Below are positions 30,317 to 49,196 of a stretch of 64,000 nucleotides of DNA, one piece after another. The stretch is from an archaeon (GTDB lineage Archaea > Nanobdellota > Nanobdellia > Pacearchaeales > GW2011-AR1), in the NCBI GenBank assembly GCA_018697035.1, contig JABHSE010000004.1, forward strand, positions 131,300 through 195,299. Direction: 5' to 3'. Positions within the stretch are counted from its first letter, which is position 1; the number at the start of each line of letters is the position of its first letter. A program made the translations under genes and the position numbers. The notes beneath the pieces are model-generated. The model worked only from the letters and a program-made list of their open reading frames with translations. It was not told the DNA's origin and did not search any database.

Positions 30317-30343
30317 AATCCTTATACAATCCTTAAAATCTCT
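30317..30343 (+). promoter_or_regulatory. Copy A of the recurring TATA-like motif
   Basis: aatccttatacaatccttaaaatctct. The second A/T box lies about 25-30 nt upstream of the ATG at 30364. Confidence 0.45.
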
Positions 30344-30363
30344 TGCACTCCATAATAACAAAA

Positions 30364-30903
30364 ATGGAAAACAAATATTTATCCCCAGCAATATATCCAG
30401 ATGTAGTTTCCACTTCCTCGGGAGACTACGGCAAAACAGCGACCCCCTTTGTCCACAAAGAATTGAAAAAATCTTTGGAACTGGTTGTCTCAAACCCACA
30501 AGCCAAACAAAAAAGCTGTCCACTCGAAGACATGTTTTCCGACAAGGCCAAAACCCTGAAAGCATCTGTTAATGCATTATTAGAAGAAATAAAATTGCGT
30601 GAAGATCTGAACGCTTATCAGACCAAAAAAATTAATGGTGAGATATGCAGACAGCACACTGAACTGATGCAGTTAGAAAACCTTAAAGATCATTATCCGT
30701 TTAATCTGACAAAAGATCTCAGTGAGACAAAGGCAAATATTGAAACGAATGTGTTTGAGCTTGAGAAAGAGAAGCGGCAGGAAGGCTTGGAGTGTTGGCG
30801 AGATTTGATGTTTTTGAAAAAATATTTGATGGTTTCGTTGAAGGATTATTGGGAGTTGGCGAGAAAGCGGGGGGTGCTGAAAGGAGGTAGTTTGGAGAAA
30901 TAA
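30364..30903 (+). CDS. Coiled-coil protein, unknown function
   Basis: The start is moved from the TTG at 30343 to the ATG at 30364 (MENKYL) because of its spacing to the TATA-like box. The heptad-rich middle includes EIKLREDLNAYQTKKINGEICRQHTELMQLENL. Confidence 0.5.
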   Translation: MENKYLSPAIYPDVVSTSSGDYGKTATPFVHKELKKSLELVVSNPQAKQKSCPLEDMFSDKAKTLKASVNALLEEIKLREDLNAYQTKKINGEICRQHTELMQLENLKDHYPFNLTKDLSETKANIETNVFELEKEKRQEGLECWRDLMFLKKYLMVSLKDYWELARKRGVLKGGSLEK

Positions 30904-31302
30904 GAATTAATCATAAACTGATACAAAATTCAACCACTACGTTGCTGAAAATCCATAAAATGCTGTTGCGATTAAATCTTCTTCTTAGATTTTACATAAT
31001 GATCGATCTTCGAATTTGCAAATAATTTCATCCAAGGATAATTTCGGTGGATATAGACTTGGCCTATTTAACTTAAAGGATTGCCTTACTTCAACGCTGC
31101 AAGCAGCGGGGAGACAAAGGGATATCCATTGTCTTGAAAACGGAACTGTACTGGCAAATCGATTGAACGATTGGGATGATATATTTTTTCTAAAAAATGC
31201 AGCAAAAAAATTAAAAGAAATTGATTCTTTACCACCAAGACTGTCTTGGCTTCACTCGTGATCTGTACTTTCTGTGCGATTAATATTTTCTGACAAAATC
31301 CT

Positions 31303-31710
31303 TCATATGACTTTTTTTCTGAATGCGAGGTACGTTCTCCCCTTTTTGAATCCCAACTTTTTGAAAAAATCTTTTTGTTTAATGTCAGAATAGGTATCTA
31401 TAGTTAATGCTCCTTCTCTTTTTACTTTCCCCTCAAATTCTTTGACAAGGGCTCTCCCAATACCTTTTTTATGGAACTCAGGCTTTACTACAATTCCCAA
31501 AAGGTCAGACCAAGCTTCAAATTTATTATACTTTCCAAAACATACCCCCACTATATTTTTCTTTTCTTCTGCTATTAAAAGGATTCCTTCTTTTAACATC
31601 CTTTCATAAAAACTCTCCGGAAACGTATTTTCATCAACATCCATTTCTTCAAATGAATCAACGAATTTTTTAATTTGAGGGATCTCTTCAGGTTTTATAT
31701 CCCTTATCAT
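31303..31710 (-). CDS. GNAT-family N-acetyltransferase
   Basis: 135 aa. Acetyl-CoA motif A: VVKPEFHKKGIGRALV. Confidence 0.8.
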   Translation of the reverse strand: MIRDIKPEEIPQIKKFVDSFEEMDVDENTFPESFYERMLKEGILLIAEEKKNIVGVCFGKYNKFEAWSDLLGIVVKPEFHKKGIGRALVKEFEGKVKREGALTIDTYSDIKQKDFFKKLGFKKGRTYLAFRKKVI

Positions 31711-31826
31711 TCAATAATGAAAAATAGTGTTATTTTTATATGTTATGAATTTGCTATAACAGACAATGGAAAAACGAATTTGTTGAATAATTACTAAAGC
31801 CCAGGATGTGATTGAGATTCGATAAT

Positions 31827-32261
31827 TTACAGATTTAGCGACATTAAAATATATTCGTTATCATATCTTAATGTAATTTGCCTAAATCCCAAATGCTTAT
31901 AGAAAGACGGTGTTTTTGTAGATATAAGTATCATCTTCGCTTTAACATCTTTTGTCTCTTTAATTCTCTTAATTAAATCACATATCAGCATGCTTCCAAC
32001 TCCTCCTCTTCTGTATTTAGGATTTACATTTACCCAGAACACATTAAAGATCGCATTATCCAGCCACGATGAATTAAACCCACCAAAGGCAATGATTTTT
32101 TTCTTTTCTTCTGCAACAATATATATTGGTTTACATAAAGATTTAGAAAACATTTCTTGAATCTCCATAAGGGCCATCTGTTTAGCATATTTTGGGTTAT
32201 TACTTTTAATAATTTCTAAGATTTGAAAAATGTCTTTTTCCTTTGCCTTTCTGAATTCCAT
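31827..32261 (-). CDS. GNAT-family N-acetyltransferase
   Basis: Motif A: VNPKYRRGGVGSMLI. The ATG at 32261 is preferred over the TTG at 32270. Confidence 0.8.
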   Translation of the reverse strand: MEFRKAKEKDIFQILEIIKSNNPKYAKQMALMEIQEMFSKSLCKPIYIVAEEKKKIIAFGGFNSSWLDNAIFNVFWVNVNPKYRRGGVGSMLICDLIKRIKETKDVKAKMILISTKTPSFYKHLGFRQITLRYDNEYILMSLNL

Positions 32262-32800
32262 GGAGATCAATATTCGAATGGGTTTATAACTTTTCGCATG
32301 CTATTGCTACAGATAATTCCTGACCTATCTACATTGATCATCAATCCCATCTCATTTCGGCATTATTGTAGAAAACGGTAAAATTGAAGTACGCTGAAGT
32401 TTATATTCCCTCGTAGGAAACACAAAATGGTTTATATAAATTATTCCAACATGAGAAAGAGTTATTAGGCAGCGAGACTGCGACCGATATCTATATGTCC
32501 GACGGATTAAACGGGCTTGAGCAAGAGATGCATATGGAAGAATAATTATGAAACAACGACAAGAAACCTTTTAGTGTGGTGATAGAAAAGCATATAGCAT
32601 GACTGAAGGGATTTAATTGTAGTATAATATTGAACCGACAAGAAGCAACACGCTGGACGTATTGCCTCTTGCCGAATAAAGTATGCTTACCGCTTGCTCT
32701 TGCAAAAAATAATACAACTGCTTTTACGCGTTCCTTTCTTAACAACTTTCATATCGCATCTCACCTCCTTTCTATTTAAATCTAAAACTTCCTATATTTT

Positions 32801-34108
32801 TTACTGGATTTCACTTATGACCAACTTTGTTGAAACCTTTTCAAAATACTCTTTTTCACAGCAAAGGGCATCCGTATCACCTTTTTGTAAAATGGCTCCG
32901 ACTCTGCATCCACCACCACAAATAGGTACAAATTTACAATCTTTGCACTTCCTCCAAAGATTAGCGGTCATAATTTTCACATTGAGAGGATTAAAGCGAA
33001 CTTCCGTCGGATCATCTTTTATGTTACCTAAAGCGTATTCTTTTCTACCTGCCAATGTCACACAGTTGTATATGTCTCCGCTTGGATCAATACTATAGGT
33101 GTGATCTCGCATAGCTTCACAAGGACCTAACGCAATGTCTTTATATGGCTTGAATCCTCTTTTTTCGATCTCCTGGATGAGCCAGAAAATATCATCAACA
33201 TTGGTTTCTGAGAATGCACACGCTTTAATAGAATGGACTGATTGTTTCTTATGGCCCGGGAATCCCAAAATTGGTTTGAAACTCATTTTCTCGATTTCAT
33301 CATTAAACCCCATATTCTTCAAGTCATCCAACAAGATTGGAATATGTTTCTTGGTTGCATCATCATAGTTACCACCTATGGCTATAGGAATCTTTCCTTT
33401 TATTTGCAGTAAATTTTTTACTATATCCCTATAGGTACCCTTACCATTTTTACGAGGCCTCATACGGTCGTGACATGCTTCATCTCCATCTATAGTTACT
33501 TTAACCAATCTCAAGCCCAACGGTCTCAAGTAATCCACCAAATCTGGTGTAAGAAGAAGCCCATTAGTTATAATTTCTATATGTAGAGTAACACCCAGTA
33601 TTTTTGATTTAGAATAAAGAGTCTCACTTATAAATCTCACTGCTTCCGAATTCATAAGAGGTTCGCCTCCGAAAAATACGATGATCAACTCCTTAGGGCG
33701 TAGGTTTTCCATTTTGATAGAGAGCCATTTGCAAACATTTGAGGCCATCTCTTTACTCATTGACATATTGGATTTCACCCCCTGCTCAAAACAATAAACA
33801 CACTTCATATTGCATGCCAAAGTTGTGAGAATGTTCGCACTTATGATTGTGGAATTGAATTTTACTCCCTGAAACCAGTATTCAATTGCTCTGTCTTCAT
33901 CCACATTATCATCTAATACGATACCGAGCTCTTTTAGTTGACATAGCTGGCCTTTCTGTTTGTCATTCAGCAAATGGGGTTGGCCACAGTTTTTTATAGC
34001 ATCAATCGTTTCGCAATCGGCTATGACTCTAGAATCAGAGAAAGTATTAAAGATAACTTCTTTCTCATCACAGAAAGGTATAAATACATTGAATTTTGAC
34101 TTTTTCAT
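32801..34108 (-). CDS. Radical SAM enzyme with C-terminal SPASM domain (RiPP-maturase-like; about 100-aa N-terminal extension)
   Basis: CNMKCVYC is the CxxxCxxC motif. The C-terminal auxiliary-cluster motif is CKDCKFVPICGGGCR. The ~100 aa before the rSAM core are compatible with a peptide-recognition (RRE-like) domain. Confidence 0.85.
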   Translation of the reverse strand: MKKSKFNVFIPFCDEKEVIFNTFSDSRVIADCETIDAIKNCGQPHLLNDKQKGQLCQLKELGIVLDDNVDEDRAIEYWFQGVKFNSTIISANILTTLACNMKCVYCFEQGVKSNMSMSKEMASNVCKWLSIKMENLRPKELIIVFFGGEPLMNSEAVRFISETLYSKSKILGVTLHIEIITNGLLLTPDLVDYLRPLGLRLVKVTIDGDEACHDRMRPRKNGKGTYRDIVKNLLQIKGKIPIAIGGNYDDATKKHIPILLDDLKNMGFNDEIEKMSFKPILGFPGHKKQSVHSIKACAFSETNVDDIFWLIQEIEKRGFKPYKDIALGPCEAMRDHTYSIDPSGDIYNCVTLAGRKEYALGNIKDDPTEVRFNPLNVKIMTANLWRKCKDCKFVPICGGGCRVGAILQKGDTDALCCEKEYFEKVSTKLVISEIQ

Positions 34109-34508
34109 CACAAGCTTCCTTTCACCATTGCATTGTAAGTTGGTGCGATATGAATCATACTTTTTCCTTAAATATTCAACAATATTTATAGTTTGGTTTT
34201 TAATGGAAAACGTATGCTACAATCTTTACACATTAGTGGATAATCGCCAAATTTTTCTCCTGGCTTTTACCGATTGATTATTATTTACATCTGTGAAGGT
34301 TTTATTTGAATGAGAATCTGTTACCACAACATTTATTCTCACAACTTAATAGTAAATTAAACAGTAGTGTACATCATTTTCTGTATATTTGTAATTCCTC
34401 ATTGTCAAGTAAAATGATTAAATATTTTATGAGTTATTGCGTTTAATCAAAATGAGGATAGATATCTAATTGCTTATTTTAACTTTCCCTACTTTCAGCC
34501 TCATTCTT

Positions 34509-34535
34509 AATCCTTATACAACCAATATAAACTCC
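34509..34535 (+). promoter_or_regulatory. Copy B of the recurring TATA-like motif
   Basis: aatccttatacaaccaatataaactcc, 65 nt upstream of the ATG at 34600. Confidence 0.4.
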
Positions 34536-34599
34536 ATTTTACAACCAACCCCATATCCCCTATCTACGCATTCGCTCCCACAAAATCATCCACCCCAAA

Positions 34600-36792
34600 A
34601 TGAACCCCCAACAAGAAACCGAAACCCTCTGCAAAAAACTAAAACCCGTCATCGGCGATCAAGCAGACATGCTCTGGCACATGTATCTATCAGAAGACGA
34701 CCTTAACAGAAGAAAGTTTGCCCAGGATATCGAAATAATCGCTGAAAAATTCCTCAAAGAACAGCCTTTGGAAAACAGACAAATCCTTCTTGAACCCCCA
34801 AGCAAAGAAAACTCAAAAGGAACATACCTTCTTGGAGATGTTATCTACAATAAAAAGAAACTCCATCCCCTTTACCTCAAACAAGAAGACTTCCTAAAAC
34901 AAGTCGGAATTTTCGCAATCACCGGAGAAGGTAAAACCAATCTTGCATATCTTCTTGCATTACAGCTTTTAGAATCAAAGACACCATTCATGGTCATTGA
35001 CTGGAAGCGGTCATGGAGGAATCTTCTTTCATTAGAAAACAAACATCCTGAATTAAAAAATGTGCAGGTTCTAACAATCGGAAGAGATACACTTCCCTTC
35101 TTATGGAATGTATTCAGAGAGCCGCCAGGCACAGATAAAAATTTCTGGGTTGGGACAATATCAGATGCACTCGAAAGGTCTCACCTCTCAGGCCCGGGAG
35201 TCGCTTATTATTTTAATAAAATTTATTCAAAACTATACAAAGGTCTTCCTGATGACTTTTACCCGAATTTCTTTGACGGTATTAGAGAACTTCGAAATAT
35301 CAAGGTATTTGGTCGAGAGGCAAATTGGAAACAGACTGCCCAAAGAATTTTTCAATCTTTTACTCTTGGAAGAGCCTCAAAGGTTTTCAATGCAAGAAAT
35401 CCAATCAAACTTGAAGAGTTGTTAGATAAACCGGTCATTCTTGAACTGGATTTGGAAATGCCAAAAGCACTCAGAATGTTTTTTTCTGAAATGATTTTGA
35501 GATGGATTCATCTTTATAGACTGAGCCGTGGAGAAACTGATAATTTGAAGCATGTTTTGTTTTTAGAGGAGGTGCATAACCTTTTTGCACAAACTTCCTT
35601 TAATAAAGATAATTCAAGTCTTGAAAATCTGTACAGGGAAATTAGAGGTTTTGGGCAGGGGATTGTTAGTATTACCCAACACCCCAGCCTATTACCAATT
35701 GAGCTTTTAGGGAACTGTCATACGCAGATTTATCTTGGACTCCAACACGCTGATGATATCACAATGGCCAGAAAGTCTCTCTTTTTAGATTATGAGGAGG
35801 ATGAATATTTGAATATTCTTAATGTCGGGGAGTGTATTGTTAAGATTAAGAATAGAGTTGAACCTTGCCTTGTTAAAACGCCTCTGGTGCATGTTCAAAA
35901 GGAGTTGGTGACAGATGAATGGTTGAAAGCGTTTAGCCTGGGTTCTCAGTTTTGGGAGTATTCCTGGAAAAAGGATGAAAATAACTTTGCATCCTTGAAA
36001 AATAATATTCAGGATATTTTGGATGGGAAAGTTCCTTTGACTGAAAATTTGAAACAGGAGAATACCCTGGACAAGAGACAAAAGAATACCCCTGGGTATT
36101 CTCCGGGTAATTCGGGAGGGAGCACATCAATTTCAACGGGGAATAAGTTAGAAAAGGAATCTGAGGGGGGTCTTTTATCGTCTGTTAATATAAAGAAGAA
36201 TAAAAGAAAATACCCCGATAAATCATGGCCTCAACATAGACTCCTTATCGATATTTTAAAGTATCCATTTTCAACTATAACCCAGAGATACAAGAGATTA
36301 AAATTATATGTGAAGCTTGGAAATAAATACAGGAAGGATTTGATTTCGGGAAAGTGTGTTCAGCCGAGAAAAATTATTACTGGGAAAGGTTGGATTACGC
36401 TTTTTGAGTTGACGCGGAAGGGGAAGATGGTTTTGGACGATTTGGGTTACGAATTTAAAAATGAAAGCGAAGGGGTTGTCCATAAATTTTGGAAACATAA
36501 GGTTAGCGAATTTTACAAGAATGAGGGATTGGATGTTCGAGTTGAGGAGTATTATGTGAATGGCAGGCCGGATATTATTGTTTTTAAGGATGGTAAAAAG
36601 GTTGCTATTGAGATTGAAACCGGGAAGTCTGATTATGTTAGGAATGTTGAGAGGGCACTTGCGGCTGGATTTGATGAGGTTGTGTGTGTCGCGGTGAATC
36701 GGTTTGTTGAGGATAAGATTTCGCGGGTTTTGAGGGAGAAAGGGGTTCGGGATGAGAGGGTTCGGGTTGTTGGGGTTCGGGGGTTTGGGTGA
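34600..36792 (+). CDS. HerA/FtsK-like (DUF87-type) P-loop ATPase fused to wHTH and a PD-(D/E)xK-like nuclease domain
   Basis: Walker A: FAITGEGKTNL. Walker B: HVLFLEEVHNLF. The C-terminus is wHTH-like (ITGKGWITLFELTRKG) followed by GRPDIIVFKDGKKVAIEIETGKS. It is a paralogue of the C-terminal fragment at 1-726. Confidence 0.8.
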   Translation: MNPQQETETLCKKLKPVIGDQADMLWHMYLSEDDLNRRKFAQDIEIIAEKFLKEQPLENRQILLEPPSKENSKGTYLLGDVIYNKKKLHPLYLKQEDFLKQVGIFAITGEGKTNLAYLLALQLLESKTPFMVIDWKRSWRNLLSLENKHPELKNVQVLTIGRDTLPFLWNVFREPPGTDKNFWVGTISDALERSHLSGPGVAYYFNKIYSKLYKGLPDDFYPNFFDGIRELRNIKVFGREANWKQTAQRIFQSFTLGRASKVFNARNPIKLEELLDKPVILELDLEMPKALRMFFSEMILRWIHLYRLSRGETDNLKHVLFLEEVHNLFAQTSFNKDNSSLENLYREIRGFGQGIVSITQHPSLLPIELLGNCHTQIYLGLQHADDITMARKSLFLDYEEDEYLNILNVGECIVKIKNRVEPCLVKTPLVHVQKELVTDEWLKAFSLGSQFWEYSWKKDENNFASLKNNIQDILDGKVPLTENLKQENTLDKRQKNTPGYSPGNSGGSTSISTGNKLEKESEGGLLSSVNIKKNKRKYPDKSWPQHRLLIDILKYPFSTITQRYKRLKLYVKLGNKYRKDLISGKCVQPRKIITGKGWITLFELTRKGKMVLDDLGYEFKNESEGVVHKFWKHKVSEFYKNEGLDVRVEEYYVNGRPDIIVFKDGKKVAIEIETGKSDYVRNVERALAAGFDEVVCVAVNRFVEDKISRVLREKGVRDERVRVVGVRGFG

Positions 36793-36794
36793 GG

Positions 36795-39540: not shown

Positions 39541-39657
39541 TTTATTTTAACCTTCCTGATACATGGATGTTTTAATACTTTGCTATACCGGTAGTTATGT
39601 TGGAAATCCCCCAATTCTAAAATATGCACGATTACCCTCGAATATGACTCCGCTCCT

Positions 39658-39684: not shown

Positions 39685-40057
39685 TTCCACCTAAACCTCC
39701 CAGAATAAAAGATCAAAAAACAATAACCTCAAACCAAAGGAGGAAAACGATTTAAAGCAAGGCAACAAATTCAACCCTTGCATACAACAGAACAAGTTCT
39801 GTTTTAAAAAATGAAGTCAAGAACTTCATCCAAAATCAGTTAAGAAATCTGAAAAAAACGGCAAGGCCCAGAATAAATCGAACCTTCTTAGCTGAGCCTC
39901 TATTAAAATTAACCGACCTGGTTTTTTTATTCAGACGTATTCCACGCCAAAATCTATTATCAAGCCTAAAGCTGACCTTTTCCAGGCAGCTTTTTTTATT
40001 TTCCCAAAAAGGAGATCCTCGTGAAAAACTAACCCATAACAAAAGGAGGCATCAATT

Positions 40058-40429
40058 ATGCCAATAGATTTTTTTGAAAAAGAACTCGGCAGGATTCAGG
40101 ACAGGTTCAATCAAACTTTTGGAGTTATGCCATTGTGCAATCCAAAAGTCAGAACCAGGATCATATTTGCAATTGTACAGATGTGCATTTTGCAAAGGAA
40201 AATCCTGAGAGAAAAACAAAAGGAGGATATCAACAGGTTTGTAAAAACCAAAGACAAACTGAACAAGATTTTCTCAACATTAACCAAAGAATCAGAAAGG
40301 AGACAACATGACACCAAAACTAAAAACCGAAACCCTCAGATTCATGAATCAGGTAATGGAAGATCTGGAGACATGTGCCTGCCAGAAGTGCGGAACAGTT
40401 TATCAAATCGGATTTGTAAAACCGGGTGA
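40058..40429 (+). CDS. Hypothetical protein (3' end uncertain; overlaps the next gene by 122 nt)
   Basis: Very strong RBS (AAAGGAGGcatcaattATG). The last ~40 codons overlap the well-supported gene at 40308. Confidence 0.35.
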   Translation: MPIDFFEKELGRIQDRFNQTFGVMPLCNPKVRTRIIFAIVQMCILQRKILREKQKEDINRFVKTKDKLNKIFSTLTKESERRQHDTKTKNRNPQIHESGNGRSGDMCLPEVRNSLSNRICKTG

Positions 40430-40742
40430 AAATTACAATGATTTTGGAATCTGGTTTTGTCCCTATTGTGGAGACTTAACTGAAAGCATTCCTGACTGGG
40501 TAAAAGATAGAACACATAAACTGGAACCCAACTATGTTTTGTTCACGATATCAGGAGGGCTTATTGATCAGGTAAAATTTTATGCTGAGCCGATAACTGC
40601 CGTAACCGCTTTATTGGATTTTGTTAAAACAATGGATGTAGAAAACGGGGATGCCGGAATTTATGGCAAATATGGATTGATTGCAAACGCCAAAGATTTC
40701 CTGGATGAAAATGATGAGGTTACAAAAAACCCAGGGGTGTGA
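40308..40742 (+). CDS. Zinc-ribbon protein
   Basis: 144 aa with an AAAGGAG RBS. Two CxxC pairs: CQKCG...CPYCG. Confidence 0.55.
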   Translation: MTPKLKTETLRFMNQVMEDLETCACQKCGTVYQIGFVKPGENYNDFGIWFCPYCGDLTESIPDWVKDRTHKLEPNYVLFTISGGLIDQVKFYAEPITAVTALLDFVKTMDVENGDAGIYGKYGLIANAKDFLDENDEVTKNPGV

Positions 40743-40864
40743 ATATGGGATACAATAGCTCTATCCTGGGAAGACGGCGAATTATGTTTAGAAGGAAAGG
40801 TTCGTCGCTGTATTTTTGCGGTAAACCAGAATAGTATTTACATAAATATCCAAACCAAACATAG

Positions 40865-40900
40865 GCTTTCTTGAGATTTCTCAAGGGGGCTTTTTATTTT
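40865..40900 (+). terminator. Intrinsic terminator, copy 1 of a repeated terminator-RBS unit
   Basis: gctttcttgaga-tt-tctcaagggggc followed by tttttattttt and then AGGAGG. It is nearly identical to 41513-41546. Confidence 0.65.
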
Positions 40901-40914
40901 TCAGGAGGTAATCT

Positions 40915-41451
40915 ATGAAAGAATATACTAACAACCCAGGCAAAAGAAATGAAACAGCCATCTTTTGGGAAGATTTAAAATCAGGGCGTTTTGCTTCAAT
41001 GATTAAAGAATCATCTAAAGGAAACGCGCTTTCAAATGCTTTGGAAGTATGCAACATCATGAAACCTTTTTTTGCCCGACATGAAGATGTAGAAAAGATG
41101 TACTGTATTTTTCTTGATGCAAAAAATAAAATCATTGCTATTGAAAAGATGTTTTCAGGTTCAATCAGAAGTTCAGCGGTATACCCCAGAGAAATCGTCA
41201 AACTGGTGTTGGAAAAAAAAGCGGCGGCAGTAATTTTGACACATAATCATCCTTCAGGTTGCGAAACACCATCATCTGAAGATTTCATGATTACAGCAAG
41301 AATTACTATTGCTCTTTCAAGCATTGAAGTTGCCTTGCATGATCATCTGATCATTGGTGAGAATTTTTACAGTTTCGCTGACCAGGGATGGCTAGCCAAA
41401 GCAAAACAAAGGTATGATGAATTCATATCATCCAGTAAACACATAATGTGA
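40915..41451 (+). CDS. radC: RadC-like JAB/MPN domain protein
   Basis: AVILTHNHPSGCETPSSEDFMITARI carries the HxHPSG..PSxxD JAMM-like signature of RadC. Confidence 0.85.
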   Translation: MKEYTNNPGKRNETAIFWEDLKSGRFASMIKESSKGNALSNALEVCNIMKPFFARHEDVEKMYCIFLDAKNKIIAIEKMFSGSIRSSAVYPREIVKLVLEKKAAAVILTHNHPSGCETPSSEDFMITARITIALSSIEVALHDHLIIGENFYSFADQGWLAKAKQRYDEFISSSKHIM

Positions 41452-41512
41452 AGAATGTGGCAACGCAGGTACTTTCCACAATAAATTAAATCGGTTCAAT
41501 TATAAATCAGGG

Positions 41513-41546
41513 GCTTTCTTGAGATTTCTCAAGAGGGCTTTTTTTA
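41513..41546 (+). terminator. Intrinsic terminator, copy 2 of the repeated unit
   Basis: gctttcttgaga-tt-tctcaagagggc followed by tttttttattttt. Confidence 0.65.
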
Positions 41547-41582
41547 TTTTTGGAGCAATAGAAAAATGAAAGGAGCATTAAA

Positions 41583-41954
41583 ATGAATAATGTAGTGGCA
41601 ATGTTTAAAAATAATTCCCAGAACCATTTAACACATCAGGGGATTAAAAGTATTCGGGATCTTCAAATTCATCTTCAGGAAATTTTTGAAAAATCAGATC
41701 ATCAGGACTCAGTTATAGTCAAACTCTACAAAATGCTGTTTCCGGACTGGGAAAAAATCCAGAGGATTGAAGGTTTTCCAGAAGTTGGACAGACTTTGTG
41801 GGATTATATCTGCAATTTGTTTATTGAGTTTGACAGAGAGCATCATCCTGGATGTTTTAAAGGCGGCGCATGGATTAACCGGGGCTTTTCATCAAGCTAT
41901 AAGCTTGAGCCCTGGGAGATCAATCTTGAAGACTGTAAAGTTATCTATTCTTAG
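41583..41954 (+). CDS. Hypothetical protein
   Basis: 123 aa with RBS AAAGGAGcattaaaATG. Confidence 0.5.
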   Translation: MNNVVAMFKNNSQNHLTHQGIKSIRDLQIHLQEIFEKSDHQDSVIVKLYKMLFPDWEKIQRIEGFPEVGQTLWDYICNLFIEFDREHHPGCFKGGAWINRGFSSSYKLEPWEINLEDCKVIYS

Positions 41955-42071
41955 TATTCTATCGCAAAAGTAATCCCGCCAGAAAACCAATCTTATAAAT
42001 TAACCAAAGAAGCCGGTAAGAAACCTTTTTCAGGGTTTTCGCCGGTTTCTTTATTTTTGAAAGGAGTTCTT

Positions 42072-42260
42072 ATGACTAAAGAACAAAGGCAATCATACCA
42101 GGAACCGGAGAAACTGCGAGAAATCTTAAGGCAACTCAAAGGCAAAAAATTCAAACTGGACTGCGGCCATCACGTCATTTTCGGGCACTATCTGGGGAGT
42201 GACATTACCATCAGAAATGGCGCAAACCCTGAAATCACCTGCTCACTATGCGGGTATTAA
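42072..42260 (+). CDS. Small Cys/His-containing protein
   Basis: The start is moved to the ATG at 42072 (GAAAGGAG RBS). Sequence includes ..FKLDCGHHVIFGHY..EITCSLCGY. Confidence 0.45.
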   Translation: MTKEQRQSYQEPEKLREILRQLKGKKFKLDCGHHVIFGHYLGSDITIRNGANPEITCSLCGY

Positions 42261-42276
42261 AAAAAGGAGAAAATCA

Positions 42277-43686
42277 ATGGATATTACAAATTATATGAAA
42301 GCCGGCTATCCGGCAATTTATATCAATACAACGGAAACTGACAGGGCAATCGAATCAATCCATGCAGATGGATATGAATCCTTTGCATGGGACTGCCTGC
42401 GAGGAATTATATCACCTGAAACAAACCGCACGGTTGAAGATGTTATTGACCCATTAGGAGCTTTACAATGGCTTTCAGACAGGCAGGAGTCAATACTGAT
42501 TGTCCAAAATTTTCATCATTTCCTGGGCTCGGTTGAAATCCTTCAGGCTATTGCAAATAATATTCATATATATAAAGGCCAGGGATCTTGCCTTATCATG
42601 GCAGGACCACATCTGACCCTGCCCCAAGAGATTGAAAAATATTTTACAGTCCTGGACTTTGCACTGCCTTCAACACAAGATCTCACAGGTATCATGCAGG
42701 AGCTTGGTGAGGCGGTAGGGGTTGATATCAATCCAACAGCTGTTGAAGCTGCAAAAGGTTTGACTGAATTTGAAGCAGAAACCGCTTTTGCCCTGAGTCT
42801 GGTAGAAACTAAGAGTTTTGATCCTGAGATCATCACAAAGCAAAAAAGGATGATGATCCGGCGGACCGGTTTGATGGAATTTTTTCCACCAGTTCCCATG
42901 GATCAGGTTGGAGGTCTTGAACCTTTCAAACAATACCTAGGCAACAGGATCAAAGCGTTTGAATTGGGCAATGAATATTTGCCAAAACCCAAAGCTCTCT
43001 TGCTTGTGGGGATACCCGGGACTGGGAAATCCCTATCCTGCAAAGCGGCGGCATCGATTTTGAACTGGCCTTTGATCCGGCTGGATATATCAGCCCTTAA
43101 AGGATCTCTGGTTGGTGAGTCTGAAAAGAAAATGCGTCAGGCCACAGCAACCATTGATGCATTTGGCAAAGCCGTGGTCTGGCTTGATGAAATTGAGAAA
43201 TCCTTTTCAGGGATTAAATCATCGGGTCAGTCCGACGGCGGAACCACTGCAGGTATGTTTGGACATTTTCTGACATGGATACAGGAAACAAGCTCACCAA
43301 TCCTTGTCATGGCAACTGCCAATGATATCTCAAGTCTGCCTCCTGAATTCATGAGAGCGGGAAGATTTGATGCAATGTTTTTTGTTGATATCCCAACCAC
43401 AAAAGAACGCTTGGAAATTATCCGAATCATGAATGAACGCTATAATTCTTTGATTCCGGAAGATCAGGTTCAGGCATTGCAGGGGTGGACAGGGGCTGAG
43501 ATTGAGCAGCTTGCAAAAGACAGTCTCTTTGACGGGCTTGATACTGCAATTGCTAACATCGTGCCGCTTTCAAAAACAATGAAAGAAGATATCGGATCTC
43601 TTCGTGACTGGGCAAAATCAAGGGCCAGGCGCGCAAACGATTACACGGAAAATGAAGTTCAACTAAAAGTAAGGAGGATCTCATGA
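42277..43686 (+). CDS. AAA+ ATPase (Ycf46-like)
   Basis: The start is moved to the ATG at 42277 (AAAAAGGAG RBS). Walker A: LLVGIPGTGKSLS. Walker B: VVWLDEIEK. A sensor/arginine-finger region includes RAGRFD. Confidence 0.85.
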   Translation: MDITNYMKAGYPAIYINTTETDRAIESIHADGYESFAWDCLRGIISPETNRTVEDVIDPLGALQWLSDRQESILIVQNFHHFLGSVEILQAIANNIHIYKGQGSCLIMAGPHLTLPQEIEKYFTVLDFALPSTQDLTGIMQELGEAVGVDINPTAVEAAKGLTEFEAETAFALSLVETKSFDPEIITKQKRMMIRRTGLMEFFPPVPMDQVGGLEPFKQYLGNRIKAFELGNEYLPKPKALLLVGIPGTGKSLSCKAAASILNWPLIRLDISALKGSLVGESEKKMRQATATIDAFGKAVVWLDEIEKSFSGIKSSGQSDGGTTAGMFGHFLTWIQETSSPILVMATANDISSLPPEFMRAGRFDAMFFVDIPTTKERLEIIRIMNERYNSLIPEDQVQALQGWTGAEIEQLAKDSLFDGLDTAIANIVPLSKTMKEDIGSLRDWAKSRARRANDYTENEVQLKVRRIS

Positions 43687-44054
43687 GTCATATTGCAAAG
43701 ATTGAATTGGAAGTCACAGACCTTGATTCATTATCCAAGGCCTGCCAGCAAATCGGGTTAAACCTGGTACGTGGTAAGACAAGCTTTAAATGGTACAACG
43801 GGAACGGCAATTGCGATCATGCAATTGAAATCCCCGGCGCCAGCTATGAAATAGGTCTTGTCTTAAAAGAAGATAAATACGAACTGCAAACCGATTTCTG
43901 GGATAAAGGAATAGAATCTGCCATTGGTAAAAATGGCGGATTTCTAAAACAAAGGTATGCAGTTGAACGAACCCGGTCTGAAGCACTCAAAAAAGGTTAC
44001 CGGGTTATTGAAAAACAAACCGATAACGGTATCCGGCTTCATGTCCGGATGTAA
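43683..44054 (+). CDS. DUF1257-family protein
   Basis: The MSHIAKIELEVTDLDSLSKACQQIGL N-terminus is typical of DUF1257 (Ycf35-like). ATGA overlap with the AAA+ gene. Confidence 0.7.
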   Translation: MSHIAKIELEVTDLDSLSKACQQIGLNLVRGKTSFKWYNGNGNCDHAIEIPGASYEIGLVLKEDKYELQTDFWDKGIESAIGKNGGFLKQRYAVERTRSEALKKGYRVIEKQTDNGIRLHVRM

Positions 44055-44077
44055 TTTTTTAAAAAGGAGCTATAATT

Positions 44078-44275
44078 ATGAAAGAGATCATTATAGACAT
44101 CTCTAATGATGGAGAAGTGAAGATTGAAACTCGTGGGTTTCAGGGCAAATCATGTATCGCTGAAAGTCAGTTTATTAAGGATCTGCTCGGAACAGAAATT
44201 CAAAAGCAGCTCACGCCCGCATATTATCATGAAAACAAAGTGCCGGTTAGAAAGTATCTTCCGATCTGCGGATAA
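44078..44275 (+). CDS. DUF2997-family protein
   Basis: IIIDISNDGEVKIETRGFQGKSCIAESQFIKDLLG matches the DUF2997 pattern (I.pdG.V..e..G..G.sC). Confidence 0.7.
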   Translation: MKEIIIDISNDGEVKIETRGFQGKSCIAESQFIKDLLGTEIQKQLTPAYYHENKVPVRKYLPICG

Positions 44276-44373
44276 GTTCTAAATTCCTAAACATTTTTCA
44301 AATTTACAATATTAATTGCAAAGCCTCAGTACCTCATGGTTCTGGGGCTTTCTTATTTAAAAAGGAGTATGTC

Positions 44374-45255
44374 ATGACAGAAAACATTTTTCAAAAAGGT
44401 TGTCTGGTTCAAATGTCTGTATCCAAGTGGGGCGGAGTAAAGAAAATAGATAAATCAAAACTCTCAAACATGGTGGATCAAGCAGAATATGACTGGGTGA
44501 CTGCAACAAAAAAACTGGTTGATCCAGAAAGCCTTAAACCCATCTGCAAGATTAATAATTTTGCCAGAAACTGGCTTACAACAATAAGCCTGCCTTTCCC
44601 AATAACCGGAATGGTGTTTGTTCCAAAAGATTTGATCAATTGTGTAGATGAGAAACTCGGTGAATTTAAAATCAAATTTAATGAGGCTGTCCAGGATTTT
44701 ATTCAGGATTACAGCTGGCTTCGTGAAACCGCAAAAACCTATCTTGGGGATCTGTTCAATGAGATTGATTACCCGGTTGATATTGGTGGCAAATTCAATT
44801 TCAACTGGCGTTTTATCATCCTTGATGTTCCCAATGGCGATACCAGGCTTTTGGCTCCTGAAGTCTATGCCCGGGAAAAAGAAAAATTCATCCAGACCAT
44901 GGAAGAAGCAAGGGGCATGGCAATAGATGCTCTCAGGGAAGAATTCGCTCAGATGGTTGAAAGAATCACCGATCGATTTGTGCAAAATGAAAACGGTAAG
45001 TCCAAAATATTCAAAAACACGACGGTTGAGAGTTTTTATGACTATTTTCAGACGTTCAAGGATCGAAATATTTTCCAGGACCATGAGCTTACAACTCTTG
45101 TAAACCGTGCCCAGGCTGTTTTGAACGGCAGCAATGTTGAGCAGATTCGATCAAGCGACAACCTGAAAGAAAATATCAGGTCGGGCATGACGGATATTGA
45201 AAATACACTTACCCAAATTTTTAACCGACCACGAAGAAAGATTGTTATAGATTGA
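44374..45255 (+). CDS. DUF3150-like protein (assignment from memory, uncertain)
   Basis: 293 aa. The N-terminus CLVQMSVSKWGGVKKIDKSKL resembles the 'isiWsGrkkL' start I associate with DUF3150. RBS AAAAAGGAG. Confidence 0.5.
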   Translation: MTENIFQKGCLVQMSVSKWGGVKKIDKSKLSNMVDQAEYDWVTATKKLVDPESLKPICKINNFARNWLTTISLPFPITGMVFVPKDLINCVDEKLGEFKIKFNEAVQDFIQDYSWLRETAKTYLGDLFNEIDYPVDIGGKFNFNWRFIILDVPNGDTRLLAPEVYAREKEKFIQTMEEARGMAIDALREEFAQMVERITDRFVQNENGKSKIFKNTTVESFYDYFQTFKDRNIFQDHELTTLVNRAQAVLNGSNVEQIRSSDNLKENIRSGMTDIENTLTQIFNRPRRKIVID

Positions 45256-45343: not shown

Positions 45344-45418
45344 ATCAGCTCAAGATTTTTTCTGCCTGGAAATTCTTTTTATCCCATCTATTCTATAATC
45401 CCATTTCCTTTAAATCCG

Positions 45419-45445
45419 AATTCTTATACAACCCCTATAAGCCCC
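45419..45445 (+). promoter_or_regulatory. Copy D of the recurring TATA-like motif
   Basis: aattcttatacaacccctataagcccc. The downstream gttaccattccataattaaacacaATG is closely similar to copy E. Confidence 0.45.
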
Positions 45446-45475
45446 CATTCCGTTACCATTCCATAATTAAACACA

Positions 45476-45651
45476 ATGGCAAAAGATAATTTAGAAACAA
45501 GAGTAAAAAAATCCGTGCTTAAAATAGAGAAGAGTCTCTCCGGTGTCTACAATATACTGACTGATTTTAGTCTTAAACTCTGCCACATAATTGAAAGGAT
45601 GGGAGATCATTACCGGGGTAACGGCGCGAATCCTTATTATACCGGTTCGTA
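45476..45651 (+). CDS. Small ORF (58 aa) below the track cutoff
   Basis: The ATG at 45476 sits in the same position relative to motif D as the ATG at 49229 does to motif E. Product: MAKDNLETRVKKSVLKIEKSLSGVYNILTDFSLKLCHIIERMGDHYRGNGANPYYTGS. Confidence 0.3.
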
Positions 45652-45693
45652 AAGTTGTACAATGTTATAAAGCGGTTTTCTGCTTACAAAAAT

Positions 45694-45888
45694 ATGACAT
45701 GTAAATTTTGTGGTGAAAAAGATAAATCAAGGCTTGGTATGAGAAGCAGCGTTGTGAATGGAAAGGTTGAAACCGTTGAGATTTGCTCTTCATGTTTGGG
45801 GGAAAAGCTGATGTTTGGTGAAATTGAAAGTGGAAAGTTATTATCAGAAGAAAAACAATTTGCGAGAGAAACAGCCAAGAATAAATGA
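45694..45888 (+). CDS. Small zinc-ribbon protein
   Basis: MTCKFCGEKD...ICSSCLGEK contains two CxxC pairs. The start could also be the TTG at 45655. Confidence 0.4.
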   Translation: MTCKFCGEKDKSRLGMRSSVVNGKVETVEICSSCLGEKLMFGEIESGKLLSEEKQFARETAKNK

Positions 45889-46275
45889 TGTTTATATTCC
45901 GAATTGGGCAAGGACGTTGATTGATTTATATACTTCGCCTTTGAAGTATGAGGTAATGTATGAGATGAGGGCACCCCCGGCACATTAAAAGGTAAAGGGT
46001 GGCCCAATGAAAAAAAATAAACACAATACAGTTGATCAGACTGCATTATTGATAATATATCATATTTTTTTCTTTATTCAAAAAAGTTTTACAACCTTAT
46101 ATTTCGGGGAAAAAGCCCGATCATTTATTTAGCACTAAAATGTGATCTATATAAAGTTGAATGTGAAAGAATGACATTTGATGCTATCTAAGGTCCATAT
46201 AGCTTAACACCTCAAATCAGCCGATGCGCTTTTTAGCTATCGGTTGCATTTACATGGTTAACCACAAGTTATTGT

Positions 46276-46791
46276 TTATCTTCTCTTTCCAAAAAATTGT
46301 CGCACAAATCGAAACAATTTATTAAGGTCCAATCCAAGCCCAAATAGATTCGGCTTCAATTCTATTGGAAAGGAGTCTGACCTTTTTTCTAACGCAATTT
46401 TATTGAGAGCCTCCAATTGACGTTTCATACGTGCTGTCAATTTTAACTTAGTCCGCTGAAACATTGGACCCTGCTTGGTAAGTTCTTTTTCCCATTCAAA
46501 TTCACCCCCACCTCTTGGTATTCGGATAAAACTATGCTTATCCCTTGGATGTCTATAGTAGAAAAGCTCAACTTCATTTATTAATATTGAACCATCTTTA
46601 TTTGCTTTCATGAGCAGCGAATTAGGTTTGCTATTTTTTTCAGTAAAGACGTAGAAATCCCTTTCTGGATGATCAAACATAAGAGATATTAGTTCGTTCA
46701 GTGCTCCTTCTGATTGGATATCCTTGTTTTCAAATCTGTGATACTTAATTACTTCCACTTTGTCTGGAAGAATATCAAAATCAGTAGACAT
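46276..46791 (-). CDS. Hypothetical protein
   Basis: 171-aa ORF, no family recognised. First of three co-directional minus-strand genes. Confidence 0.5.
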   Translation of the reverse strand: MSTDFDILPDKVEVIKYHRFENKDIQSEGALNELISLMFDHPERDFYVFTEKNSKPNSLLMKANKDGSILINEVELFYYRHPRDKHSFIRIPRGGGEFEWEKELTKQGPMFQRTKLKLTARMKRQLEALNKIALEKRSDSFPIELKPNLFGLGLDLNKLFRFVRQFFGKRR

Positions 46792-46873
46792 AGGACGTCC
46801 TTTTAAAATTAGAACTTGACATTAGCAGCAGACAACAACTTGCTTGCTTGTGCCTATCCGCTCGATGTAAGGG

Positions 46874-47305
46874 TTAGGTGGGGTTTTTATATTTCCCCAC
46901 TATGCAGTCACTCGGTCTTGTTTTATCCCAGACGTCAATAAGCCTGGGTTTTGCCTTTTGCCACCAAAACTTTATAGCCAATTCTTCTTTTCTACTTATA
47001 GAACCAATCATTTTATTACAGTTATCAATTCTAAAAGAAGCATCCACATTTGTTGACGTTACATGAAAATGCGGCGGGGTATGCTCTTTCAGGTAAATTT
47101 CTATCCTCAGCCCATGAACAACCTCAATTAACTGACGTTGTTCGACAAGGATGAGTTCCCCATTTCTTTCCAAAACATAACAGTCGCCGTGTAGTATGGA
47201 ATCCAAGTATTCGGCCCAATCATTTACAGATTCCAGAGTTTCTATATCCACAAGGTAAAACTTGCTGGAACCTCTAAGGATTTTTTTGAGTCTATATTTA
47301 TCCAT
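46874..47305 (-). CDS. DUF4160-domain protein with an N-terminal extension
   Basis: LRIEIYLKEHTPPHFHV is the H.PPHFH signature of DUF4160. The ATG at 47305 is preferred over the GTG at 47311. Confidence 0.6.
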   Translation of the reverse strand: MDKYRLKKILRGSSKFYLVDIETLESVNDWAEYLDSILHGDCYVLERNGELILVEQRQLIEVVHGLRIEIYLKEHTPPHFHVTSTNVDASFRIDNCNKMIGSISRKEELAIKFWWQKAKPRLIDVWDKTRPSDCIVGKYKNPT

Positions 47306-47554
47306 ATACACCCACAGTTAAGTTCCCCAGTTTTTTTCTGTATAACTCCGTTTGACGGAGAACATTCAATGGCTACCAAAAAAATGGACATGACAACGTC
47401 ATACTTAATAAAAATCCATTTGCGCCCCGTTTAATTTAAAAATTTTATTCGCTTACGGGAAACATTCCTTTTCCTTTAAAATCCTCAATTTCAGCCAAAG
47501 CCTTCTCAAAAATCCTTTCGGCTCGCTCTTTCTCTTCTTTTTCTCTACGCTCGT

Positions 47555-48571
47555 CTATGCTAAATACACTTTAAAGCTACCGCCCATGGCAACTTTTAAA
47601 TCTATTTCTTGAAATGTAAGCAAGGCATTGAATTTCCCATGAAATTTATTCCCTTCTAAATATCCAGTTGCGATTGTTTGAGATTCAATGCTCATATTCA
47701 TTAGAAATGGTGTTTCTTCCCATGTTACCAAATTAAGAGCCATTTCTCCCTTTGGGATGATATGGGTCGTTATCGCCGAACACACTGTGGGGATTTCTGG
47801 ATTGGTTGATACGACTTCATGATCGCTGAACAGACGCAAGGAATGTAATCCTAATTTTTCATTTAGTTTTTGAAGTGATTGATACGGCACCTGTGTTTCA
47901 ATATATGTTTCCAACTTACCATTTTCATTTCGTTCTATCGACCCTTCAGTTATAGCCATCGTCAAGCCAATTAATGGTTTTAAACCTAAAGTATTATTGA
48001 TGTAATTTATCGATCCGCTGGTTATTCGAACTATAGACCGCAATCCAGGCCCAATAGGCAACCCTTTGTCGACCTTGTACTTCGGGTGGTCACGAAGTAT
48101 TCCTTCTGGTGATAATATGTTCATGATAATATCAAGAGACTCCTCCATGTTTTCATAATTGCATTGAAAAAATGGTTTTGCACCTGGATCTCTATCTGTT
48201 TGAAAAATTTGAAAATCCAGACCATTGGATAAACAGAAATACACAGCACGAATTTCTGGATGATTAGCGTAAGTCCATGATTGCTCTACTGCATCATTAT
48301 CTAATGCCTCACTTGGGGCTTTTGCCTCAATTACCCAGTTTATTTGCCCCTTCACATTGCATATATAATCCGCCCGACCACGTAATATGGGGTCAGTTTT
48401 TTTCTTTCTACCTAAAGAACTCTTTGGATATGTTAATGGTTGCTCCCTGATTACGTTATTTTCTGTGCCGGATCTGTACCCAAGGTGCCGCAACAGAGGA
48501 GCAATTATTTCCTCCCGAATATCTGTTTCGTTTAAACTGGCAAAATCGTATTGAGGGAAATCCATTCTCAT
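47555..48571 (-). CDS. Protein with an HsdR-N-terminal-like PD-(D/E)xK nuclease domain
   Basis: ETDIREEIIAPLLRHLGY...RADYICNVKGQINWVIEAKAP fits the type I restriction R-subunit N-terminal domain pattern (E..v...LGY ... DY.. ..vEaK). Confidence 0.6.
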   Translation of the reverse strand: MRMDFPQYDFASLNETDIREEIIAPLLRHLGYRSGTENNVIREQPLTYPKSSLGRKKKTDPILRGRADYICNVKGQINWVIEAKAPSEALDNDAVEQSWTYANHPEIRAVYFCLSNGLDFQIFQTDRDPGAKPFFQCNYENMEESLDIIMNILSPEGILRDHPKYKVDKGLPIGPGLRSIVRITSGSINYINNTLGLKPLIGLTMAITEGSIERNENGKLETYIETQVPYQSLQKLNEKLGLHSLRLFSDHEVVSTNPEIPTVCSAITTHIIPKGEMALNLVTWEETPFLMNMSIESQTIATGYLEGNKFHGKFNALLTFQEIDLKVAMGGSFKVYLA

Positions 48572-48903
48572 TTCCTTTATCTATTTATGGCATAACTAAA
48601 AGCGTTTTATCCGACCTGAAATGATTTAAAATTTTGATCTGGAAATTATTACCAATATTTCAAATTTGTGTAAAGGGATATTCAATTATATTTGTCCAAA
48701 CAAAATCACGCAACAAAATAAACTCGCTACATAATTGGAGACAGTGGTCTCTTTCAATTGAAAATTGCCACAAAATATAGAGGTTGAGAGATATTGCTGT
48801 TTAATGAGACTCGTATAATTAACTTTAAAAAAACCAATTACCACCTACTCTTGATTGGCCAGATCCAGAAAACAACTTTTTCTAAGTCTGGGACAAAATC
48901 AAA

Positions 48904-48918
48904 GATCCTGTAGCTCAG
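48904..48918 (+). repeat. 15-nt copy of the 5' end of the tRNA-Ile gene
   Basis: gatcctgtagctcag is identical to 52174-52188 (acceptor 5' strand plus D-stem). What follows is not tRNA-like. Confidence 0.7.
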
Positions 48919-49006
48919 CCTCTTACCGAGAATAGCTGACCTCAAGATTTATATACTTCTTGGCCTGTTCAAGATCGGAAAAACAAAAAGCTTTGAGACA
49001 TTAAAA

Positions 49007-49147
49007 ATGAAGGAATCTCATAGAACAAAAGGCGGATTTGAAATGAATAAGGATGTATATGTTCCTATTTGGGCGCAGACGTTGATTGATTTGTATACTT
49101 CTCCCTTGAAAGACGAAGTCCTTCGCGAGATGAAAAAGGATAAATAA
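49007..49147 (+). CDS. Small ORF (46 aa) encoding a conserved DVYxPxWAxTLIDLYTSPLK peptide
   Basis: MKESHRTKGGFEMNKDVYVPIWAQTLIDLYTSPLKDEVLREMKKDK. A second, start-less copy about 82% identical over 60 nt lies at 45887-45988. Confidence 0.35.
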   Translation: MKESHRTKGGFEMNKDVYVPIWAQTLIDLYTSPLKDEVLREMKKDK

Positions 49148-49169
49148 ATTGATTTCTTCTATTCTCCTC

Positions 49170-49196
49170 AATCTTTGTACAATACATATAAACTCC
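49170..49196 (+). promoter_or_regulatory. Copy E of the recurring TATA-like motif
   Basis: aatctttgtacaatacatataaactcc, then gttaccattatataattaaacaaaatATG. Confidence 0.45.

Follow-up and report, generated by a model that had tools for sequence, protein, structure and literature searches.

A short two-box motif as the likely private promoter of backbone operons in an integrated element of a Pacearchaeales archaeon

A 64,000-nt stretch from the genome of a Pacearchaeales archaeon (hereafter, the window) was analyzed, in which a motif of about 30 nt, composed of two boxes (box 1 and box 2), occurs five times within one integrated mobile element. This motif proved to be a genuine cis-element of high specificity. 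It most likely serves as a private promoter/operator of the element's backbone operons, and the probability that it is the promoter/operator core with which each backbone transcription unit of this element starts was put at about 0.6. The uniqueness of the motif in the genome, its conservation in a family of related elements, its orientation following that of the downstream gene, its TATA geometry and the location of homology breakpoints at the motif were observed directly.

The five copies and their family

In the initial annotation, made from the sequence alone, five plus-strand copies were placed at 30317, 34509, 39658, 45419 and 49170, and both the coordinates and the strand were found to be correct (Table 1). 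A 27-nt weight matrix was built from these copies, and the whole genome (808,832 bp) was scanned with it on both strands, as the annotation had proposed. The five copies scored 33.7-39.9 bits versus 19.7 bits for the best other site in the genome; the maxima in block-shuffled genomes were 18.6-21.1 bits, and only the five copies exceeded these controls. A second matrix, of 31 nt and refined on 64 sites of the family, gave the five copies 31.9-39.6 bits and the next genome sites 20.7 and 14.1 bits. The former (C3:83354) appears, by eye, to lie in the coding sequence of a minus-strand gene and is probably a chance match. A generic host promoter standing before most genes, which had been named as the finding that would speak against a special role, could be ruled out because the motif preceded no other gene and no further copy was present in the 809-kb genome. 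Three sites near 28150, 51140 and 52871, previously regarded as looser relatives, scored -23, -15 and -12 bits with the 31-nt matrix and do not belong to the set. They share with the motif only its generic host TATA half and are ordinary host TATA promoters.

Other properties ascribed to the copies were also examined. The distance from the end of the 27-mer to the ATG was 21 nt for copy A, 65 nt for copy B, 31 nt for copy D and 33 nt for copy E. Copy C, which had been described as an exception, is indeed followed by ~370 nt without an open reading frame (ORF). Copies A, D and E are not accompanied by a Shine-Dalgarno sequence, and copy E begins just 23 nt past the stop codon of the preceding ORF. 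The G-poor tract at the copies is real and common to the whole motif family: at the family sites, G made up 2-3% of the motif, at most 10% of the sequence from about -30 to +45, and ~14-22% farther out. The extension shared by copies D and E was recovered as 76% identity over 59 nt, and its GTTACCATT part represents a third box that is present in many relatives.

After three further elements had been added, about 45 related loci were found to hold 74 unique copies of the motif. The refined matrix detected 66 sites in 367 kb of family DNA versus 0-1 in shuffled sequences. The family consensus was CC(A/T)ATCCTT(A/G)TACAA-N3-(T)TATAAA-cYCC. Box 1, ATCCTTRTACAA, was near-invariant even between elements whose ATPases share 48% identity, and positions A2, T3, C4, T7, T9, A10, C11, A12, T18, A21 and A22 were conserved at 96% or more. 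Box 2 (TWWAAA) varied among A and T only (TATAAA, TTTAAA and TAAAAA). The spacing between the boxes was the same in all instances because all of them were found with an ungapped matrix. The two boxes form a direct repeat at 11-nt spacing, CCTTATACA / CCTTATAAA (CCTTATAMA), and in many copies a looser third box (GTTACCAYT-like) lies downstream. Box 1 often carries a G, and when this G occupies position 8, the core TTGTACAA is a perfect 8-bp palindrome. The potential of the motif regions to form single-strand structure was close to nil (minimum free energy 0 to -2.5 kcal/mol, z from -0.5 to +0.8 versus shuffles). A sigma-70 promoter, an attC-like hairpin and a single-strand promoter were ruled out by the hexamer scan and by folding. 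A T7-like reading suggested by TATAGGGG on the complementary strand was dropped, since no polymerase gene was found and that strand points away from the genes.

In every instance checked, the motif faced the downstream gene. No opposite-strand match above 17 bits was found among 43 ATPase-oriented loci, and the opposite-strand copies at 28886 and 29617 of G001 C1 and at 29385 of G499 precede opposite-strand ORFs with unchanged spacing. The two in G001 C1, at the far end of this element copy, each precede one gene: that of a second tyrosine recombinase of 462 aa (L043, 7452-8840, minus strand) and that of a winged-helix protein of 183 aa (L043, 9020-9571, minus strand). The sites were always intergenic, with 4-5 copies per element of 20-40 kb. 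In the literature searched, strings of the motif occurred only in unrelated papers, mostly on eukaryotes, and both the element family and its motif appear to be undescribed there.

A string resembling part of the motif, AATCCTTATACAATCTTTATAAC, was conserved in many Rheinheimera genomes and in a few unclassified gammaproteobacterial metagenome-assembled genomes (MAGs; L001, L003, L011-L014, L020, L022-L025). This site matches the 5' part of the search pattern, its flanks are unlike the motif leaders, and it appears to be unrelated to the motif.

Promoter geometry and the proposed mechanism

The distance from T18, the first base of box 2, to the ATG was counted at 66 sites with a downstream ORF starting with ATG. 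It was 27-30 nt at 21 of the 66 sites and 26-45 nt at 40 of them; for random positions, the share within the latter range was 11%. One site was found at 21 nt, none at 22-26 nt and nine at exactly 27 nt. For copy A, the distance to the ATG of gene A (30364) was 30 nt. Box 2 thus has the form and place of an archaeal TATA box, namely TWWAAA with a minimum of 27 nt from T18 to the ATG, the transcription start being taken from the position of the ATG.

Host promoters were studied in the same way. The host is an archaeon: the gene for the TATA-binding protein (TBP) lies on the same 394-kb contig, and no sigma-70 gene was found. The octamers TTTATAAA, CTTATAAA and TTATAAAC were enriched 5-6-fold (5-8-fold for TTTATAAA-type octamers), with a median start at -28 to -30 from start codons. 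A Shine-Dalgarno-like sequence was present at only ~21% of host genes (crude gene calls, whole genome), and therefore most host mRNAs are apparently leaderless. In the aligned host promoters, the A-rich peak of the B recognition element (BRE) coincided with A12 and A13 of the motif (57% and 76% A), whereas positions 14-16, C-rich in the motif, were A/T-rich in the host. Host and cargo promoters contained TATA boxes resembling box 2 and never box 1. Most cargo and flanking genes had a TATA box near -30, including GNAT1 and GNAT2, where it was of the host type; before the start of the radical-SAM gene, no clear TATA box was seen. A tRNA match of 172 nt at 52174-52345 implies an intron of ~100 nt. 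The motif had earlier been suggested to be a promoter, and these data agree: it is promoter-like and element-specific, and box 2 behaves as an archaeal TATA box. Of the two boxes, both of which had been said to look like archaeal TATA elements, only box 2 is TATA-like; box 1 is probably a specific recognition sequence.

The following mechanism may be proposed. Box 2 (T18-W-W-A-A-A) would serve as the TATA box for TBP in the archaeal host, and ACAA just before it would occupy the place of the host A-rich BRE. Transcription would start at the motif, ~27 nt past T18, which would leave gene A without a leader, D1 and E1 with leaders of ~10-15 nt, and the units headed by copies B and C with longer ones. 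Box 1 (about -45 to -34) would be bound by a dedicated, element-specific factor, either an activator or a repressor, which would switch all backbone operons together, with the cargo left on ordinary promoters. The same sequence stands at 4-5 backbone module heads per element and at no cargo or host gene, as is expected of a backbone operator.

Several observations weigh against this mechanism. No box-1-binding protein was identified among the candidates encoded by the element. Gene A was rejected as the missing factor, since it is predicted to be a plain antiparallel coiled coil with two long helices (53-110 and 116-174) and Foldseek returned only generic coiled-coil matches, none at an E value of 0.001 or better. 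A small MerR-like helix-turn-helix (HTH) protein encoded at 36914 is not conserved in relatives, and D1 and E1 have no recognizable fold. The candidates for binding box 1 are the C-terminal domain of the ATPase, this HTH protein and the small D proteins. The long leaders after copies B and C mean that the leaderless geometry applies at only part of the sites. Furthermore, box 2 is the second half of the direct repeat that begins with box 1, and it could be a second protein site instead of a TATA box. Finally, three element copies of Desulfatiglandales, bacteria with sigma-70 and without TBP, have the same motif heading the same modules, and because it is kept there, an archaeal TATA box cannot be the whole story. 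For the bacterial copies there are three possibilities: they use an activator that acts at box 1, both transcription machineries can read the signal, or one of the two sets of copies is poorly expressed.

Modules of the element, their boundaries and relatives

The element spans ~26.9 to 49.5 kb of the window, between a tyrosine integrase gene and a tRNA-Glu gene (Table 1). The copies had been thought to open a family of small integrated cassettes; instead, all five belong to one integrative element, each at the head of one of its transcription units, and five independent cassettes were ruled out by the single integrase and by the module order kept in relatives. This order is the integrase, gene A with its motif, cargo, the ATPase gene with its motif, cargo, a motif-led operon usually containing RadC, and motif-led D1-D3. 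It is common to the element of the window, to the relative G004 (a 39-kb contig without an integrase, in which no RadC homolog was found) and to the three copies that two Desulfatiglandales genomes carry. In G001 C1, no D-type motif was found and a D1 homolog is present with no motif found before it, and neither a D1 homolog nor a D-type motif was found in G001 C2. In one clade, gene A and the ATPase gene are adjacent and a single motif serves both; where cargo separates them, the ATPase gene has its own copy.

Table 1. Coordinates of the motif copies and of the features of the element in the window
Feature	Position	Strand	Remarks
Motif copy A	30315..30345	+	31-mer CCAATCCTTATACAATCCTTAAAATCTCTTG; heads gene A; family matrix 36.1 bits
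Motif copy B	34507..34537	+	Heads the HerA/FtsK-like ATPase gene; 33.8 bits
Motif copy C	39656..39686	+	Heads the long conserved leader and the C operon; 39.6 bits
Motif copy D	45417..45447	+	Heads D1, D2 and D3; 34.0 bits
Motif copy E	49168..49198	+	Heads E1, the last gene before tRNA-Glu; 31.9 bits
Tyrosine integrase, 217 aa	26896..27549	+	Pfam Phage_integrase, E = 1.2e-25; without motif
Gene A, 179 aa, predicted helical-hairpin coiled coil	30364..30903	+	AlphaFold mean pLDDT (predicted local distance difference test) 77
Cargo between A and B: two GNAT-like ORFs and a radical-SAM enzyme	31303..34111	-	Without motif
HerA/FtsK-like ATPase, 730 aa, with C-terminal nuclease-like domain	34600..36792	+	Pfam DUF87, HerA_C, CoiA_nuc
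Conserved non-coding leader after copy C	39687..40057	+	Several hairpins, the last a hairpin with T-run
C operon: two small ORFs, RadC, unknown ORF, AAA+ ATPase, DUF1257, DUF2997, DUF3150	40058..45255	+	Pfam
D module: D1 (58 aa), D2, D3	45476..45988	+	Homologs in relatives
Cargo between D and E: three genes, including an HSDR_N protein	46276..48571	-	Pfam HSDR_N; without motif
E1, 72-aa ORF	49229..49447	+	ATG at 49229; led by copy E
tRNA-Glu(UUC)	49509..49583	-	ARAGORN and Rfam; 3' end towards the element, at its right end

The boundaries between backbone and cargo were compared with those in relatives. In the closest relative, L049 (86-91% DNA identity), homology to the window stops with the end of gene A (30890) and sets in again exactly at copy B (34509). 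It resumes just before copy C as well, at 39654 versus G004 and at 39649 versus L051. The cargo between gene A and the ATPase gene is absent from relatives, in which a different cargo occupies this place. The suggestion that the motif marks boundaries is therefore right as a description, since copies B and C coincide with the junction of variable cargo and conserved backbone. Since the opening ~30-45 nt are common to all backbone blocks, the motif becomes the junction at which cargo differs between relatives. The simplest cause of this position is that a backbone block is under constraint from its promoter onwards; recombination between copies of the common ~30 nt may contribute to the pattern.

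A further variable spot was seen at the end of a 692-aa ORF preceding copy A, where L049 contains an extra 2.9 kb (L049 658-3531 versus window 30229-30235). The variable spot of L049 thus also lies just upstream of a motif copy.

When four genomes of the same genus were compared with the window, only the methyltransferase gene next to ychF was syntenic, and nothing to the left of ~51.1 kb was found. Hence the motif copies lie inside a variable island and not at host synteny breaks, where the initial annotation had suggested looking for them. Three of the four same-genus stretches carry tRNA-Glu, within ~0.7 kb of the methyltransferase gene in two of the three and at ~5 kb in the third (L114-L116). 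In the window (49509-51180), the methyltransferase gene comes after an intact tRNA-Glu, a Fic gene with repeats on either side and an inverted tRNA-Glu fragment of 21 nt (51076-51096). The tRNA-Glu gene looks like an insertion hot spot. No tRNA-Glu-derived repeat that could represent attL/attR was found near the integrase gene.

The individual modules had the following properties. Homologs of the integrase with 62-64% identity lie upstream of gene A in three bacterial copies. Among 147 homologs of gene A, none is informatively named, and in relatives the ATPase is its neighbor. No informative match to the C-terminal domain of the ATPase was found among solved structures. When most of the larger ORFs of the element were scanned against Pfam and PHROG, neither an RNA polymerase nor a sigma-like gene was revealed, and Rfam contained no family matching the window besides tRNAs. 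Conservation across relatives was seen for the integrase, the coiled-coil protein, the ATPase, RadC and the small D proteins.

The leader after copy C shares 78-82% DNA identity with its counterparts in G004 and L051, and a similar leader was aligned from L075. The consensus fold of the four sequences had compensatory changes at 2 of 53 pairs, and no Rfam match was found. Its terminal hairpin with T-run stands right before a GGAGG site, and the leader could be a regulatory leader or a small RNA. The proteins of the C operon, 60-94% identical to those of G004, are encoded with GGAGG ribosome-binding sites and hairpin/T-run terminators. RadC (40915-41451) lies between direct repeats of 51 nt (40857-40907 and 41505-41555, 84% identical), each of which consists of a hairpin with T-run followed by a ribosome-binding site. 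The entire RadC segment is absent from the otherwise collinear G004 and looks like a small cassette insertion in which the motif would not have been involved.

A strong hairpin with T-run at 45303-45346 lies ~75 nt before copy D. Motif-led homologs of D1 and D3 were found in G004 and G499, and motif-led homologs of D1 and D2 in L086. The 3' end of D3 is present in two copies (45884-45968 and 49049-49133, 75% identical) that flank the 3-kb minus-strand cargo, the second of which closes a 46-aa ORF just before copy E. This arrangement suggests that the cargo between D and E was gained by recombination within D3. No homolog of E1 was found among the fetched relatives.

A search with the ATPase alone yielded 43 metagenome loci with 44-94% identity. 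An exact-pattern scan of genome contigs returned mostly unrelated single matches; the only true relatives were L004, L005, L009, L016/L027 and L021. Full-length copies with similar leaders were present in several MAG contigs. Four pattern matches in IMG/VR were rejected as chance, and no relative of the ATPase was found in IMG/VR or among the PLSDB plasmids. ATPase relatives of ~45% identity (in an alignment confined to the N-terminal ~440 aa) and of ~30% identity have neither gene A nor the motif. Of 401 genomes sampled from the phylum of the window, 2 had close ATPase homologs, as did 2 of 201 Desulfatiglandales genomes, and the two archaeal genomes carrying the element belong to different families. 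The Desulfatiglandales contain three copies of the element, L042/L043 (G001 C1), L109/L110 (G001 C2) and L111/L112 (G499 C4), on contigs of 1.15, 4.14 and 6.48 Mb. All three copies are intact, and their ATPases are 77-92% identical to each other and ~70% identical to that of the window. Homologs of gene A are mostly labeled as Desulfobacterota, including the isolate Desulfocicer niacini. The exact gene A protein of the window was found on 27 contigs of up to 784 kb, and this recurrence argues against a one-off chimera. The element family apparently spans both domains.

Alternative explanations and comparison with known systems

The bacterial copies raise the question of whether the motif belongs to a bacterial-host module, used by RNA polymerase with an element-encoded activator at box 1, in which case the archaeal geometry would be coincidental and the archaeal copy silent or accidental. 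With the ATG taken as +1, box 1 is centered near -40, at the position of a class II activator, and CATAAT or TATAAT stands 5-7 nt before the ATG in A-type leaders. The source labels of the family are mostly bacterial, the three diverged copies lie intact in multi-Mb contigs with sigma-70 genes, and the C operon has GGAGG sites and hairpin/T-run terminators. Nevertheless, this explanation is unlikely. A consensus scan revealed no sigma-70-type -35/-10 pair at the five copies and no enrichment of such pairs in the region (65 versus 69 expected), and the 21 sites of the leaderless class share no common TAnnnT at -12 to -7. The sharp 27-nt minimum between box 2 and the ATG suits archaeal geometry and not a -10 element, and the presence of the element in two archaeal families, together with the recurrence of the exact gene A protein, also counts against it. 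A purely RNA-level role is the least probable of the alternatives. Transcription would then start upstream, and the motif would be part of a G-free, unstructured 5' leader or intercistronic element on which the ribosomes of any host could load without a Shine-Dalgarno sequence. The G-poor tract of ~75 nt that is unable to fold, the lack of Shine-Dalgarno sequences at copies A, D and E and the short distance between copy E and the preceding stop codon fit this role. However, no conserved promoter was found upstream, relatives have no related sequence ahead of copies B and C, and a strong terminator-like hairpin precedes copy D. The same 27-nt minimum would be expected of a transcription start rather than of a leader element, and the near-invariance of 12 nt is unusual for a leader that is merely unstructured.

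The location of the motif at module boundaries can also be explained by a recombination site, used by the element's tyrosine recombinase or by short-homology recombination for exchanging modules and taking in cargo, with a promoter role that is secondary or absent. At copies B and C, homology breaks no more than 9 nt from the left edge of the motif, and the cargo beyond it is unrelated; a second copy appears exactly where cargo parts gene A from the ATPase gene; and the duplicated 3' end of D3 lies just before copy E. Even so, such a role is quite improbable: core sites of tyrosine recombinases consist of an inverted repeat with a spacer in the middle, a form that the motif does not have, and it lacks the single-strand hairpin potential of attC. 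It bounds cargo on one side only, other module changes use other repeats, such as those around RadC, and the fixed distance to the start codon and the TATA-like box are left unexplained. It is very improbable that box 1 is instead a polar loading or recognition sequence for the HerA/FtsK-like motor, acting through the C-terminal region of the ATPase in DNA transfer or packaging, as KOPS (FtsK-orienting polar sequences) do for FtsK and clt repeats for Streptomyces TraB. The common direction of the five copies in the window would suit a motor, as would the co-occurrence of the motif with gene A and with the ATPase form that bears the C-terminal nuclease-like domain, the more distant ATPase relatives being without the motif. 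Yet the orientation tracks the downstream gene and not the axis of the element, the three opposite-strand copies standing before opposite-strand genes. Moreover, the copies are always intergenic, at a set distance from the start codon and rigidly joined to the TATA-like box, and number just 4-5 per 20-40 kb.

A promoter/operator core thus remains the preferred explanation, and an extension of it concerns the two domains. The element may move between Desulfobacterota and ultra-small archaea with a portable expression signal active in both, namely a G-free promoter of ~45 nt in which a TATA-like box is combined with a private recognition box and from which mostly leaderless genes are expressed. 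This signal would act either through an unrecognized element-encoded initiation factor or by serving both machineries. This scenario is doubtful, although its chance is not negligible. If it is true, it represents a natural solution to expressing genes across a domain boundary; if the motif works in archaea only, it is an ordinary, if neat, element-specific promoter control. The same signal is found in Desulfatiglandales chromosomes and in small archaeal genomes, which makes gene expression after a crossing between Bacteria and Archaea testable by experiment, and this cross-domain retention is the part most worth such an experiment. On the preferred explanation, the motif would delimit the backbone regulon of an uncharacterized, widespread family of integrating elements with a core of a tyrosine integrase, a coiled-coil protein and a HerA/FtsK-like ATPase. 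It can also serve as a sequence handle for finding such elements and for telling backbone from cargo in metagenomes.

Among known systems, archaeal integrons with attC sites and gene cassettes have been described (bioRxiv 10.1101/2022.02.06.479319). The motif resembles them in that a site is repeated at the boundaries of gene blocks, a tyrosine recombinase is nearby and traffic between domains is possible. It differs in that it has no hairpin-forming imperfect palindrome and lies 5' of conserved genes rather than 3' of promoterless cassettes, and the integrase of the element is a generic tyrosine recombinase. In the mosaic genomes of T4-type phages, promoter/stem-loop cassettes (PeSL) occur at module junctions. 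There, too, a repeated promoter sequence borders variable blocks and is a possible point of short-homology crossover; in contrast, the motif has no stem-loop and flanks backbone blocks rather than small hyperplastic ORFs, and recombination at it would be deduced from breakpoints only.

Phage promoters that depend on machinery dedicated to them, namely those of the 23-nt T7 type and the T4 late promoters TATAAATA, which are used with gp55/gp33, share with the motif a long (~27-45 nt), near-identical directional sequence before each unit, with an upstream specificity part and a TATA-like melting part. They differ from it in that the ORFs of the element yielded neither an RNA polymerase nor a sigma-like gene and in that the downstream box of the motif matches the host TATA box and its spacing. 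Archaeal BRE/TATA promoters may have an adjacent site for a factor, either an activator such as Ptr2 or a virus or plasmid regulator such as F55 of SSV1. The motif agrees with them in its putative TATA box ~27 nt before the presumed start, in A-rich positions where a BRE would lie, in genes that would be leaderless and in a specific site abutting the core. However, box 1 by far exceeds any BRE in conservation and reaches to about -47, and the module is also kept in bacterial copies, where neither TBP nor transcription factor B is present.

The omega heptad repeats of pSM19035 are sites of a global plasmid regulon, in which the site is a short direct repeat beside the core promoter, as it is in the motif. 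Operators of KorA/KorB are reported at many backbone promoters of the IncP plasmid RK2 (PMC11790492). In comparison with RK2 and pSM19035, the motif is directional, stands at a fixed distance from a TATA-like box, occurs in an archaeal host with relatives in two domains, and has no cognate regulator identified. As in both plasmids, one short sequence is present at most backbone promoters and absent from host and cargo genes. A private backbone regulon is of a kind already known from plasmids and phages.

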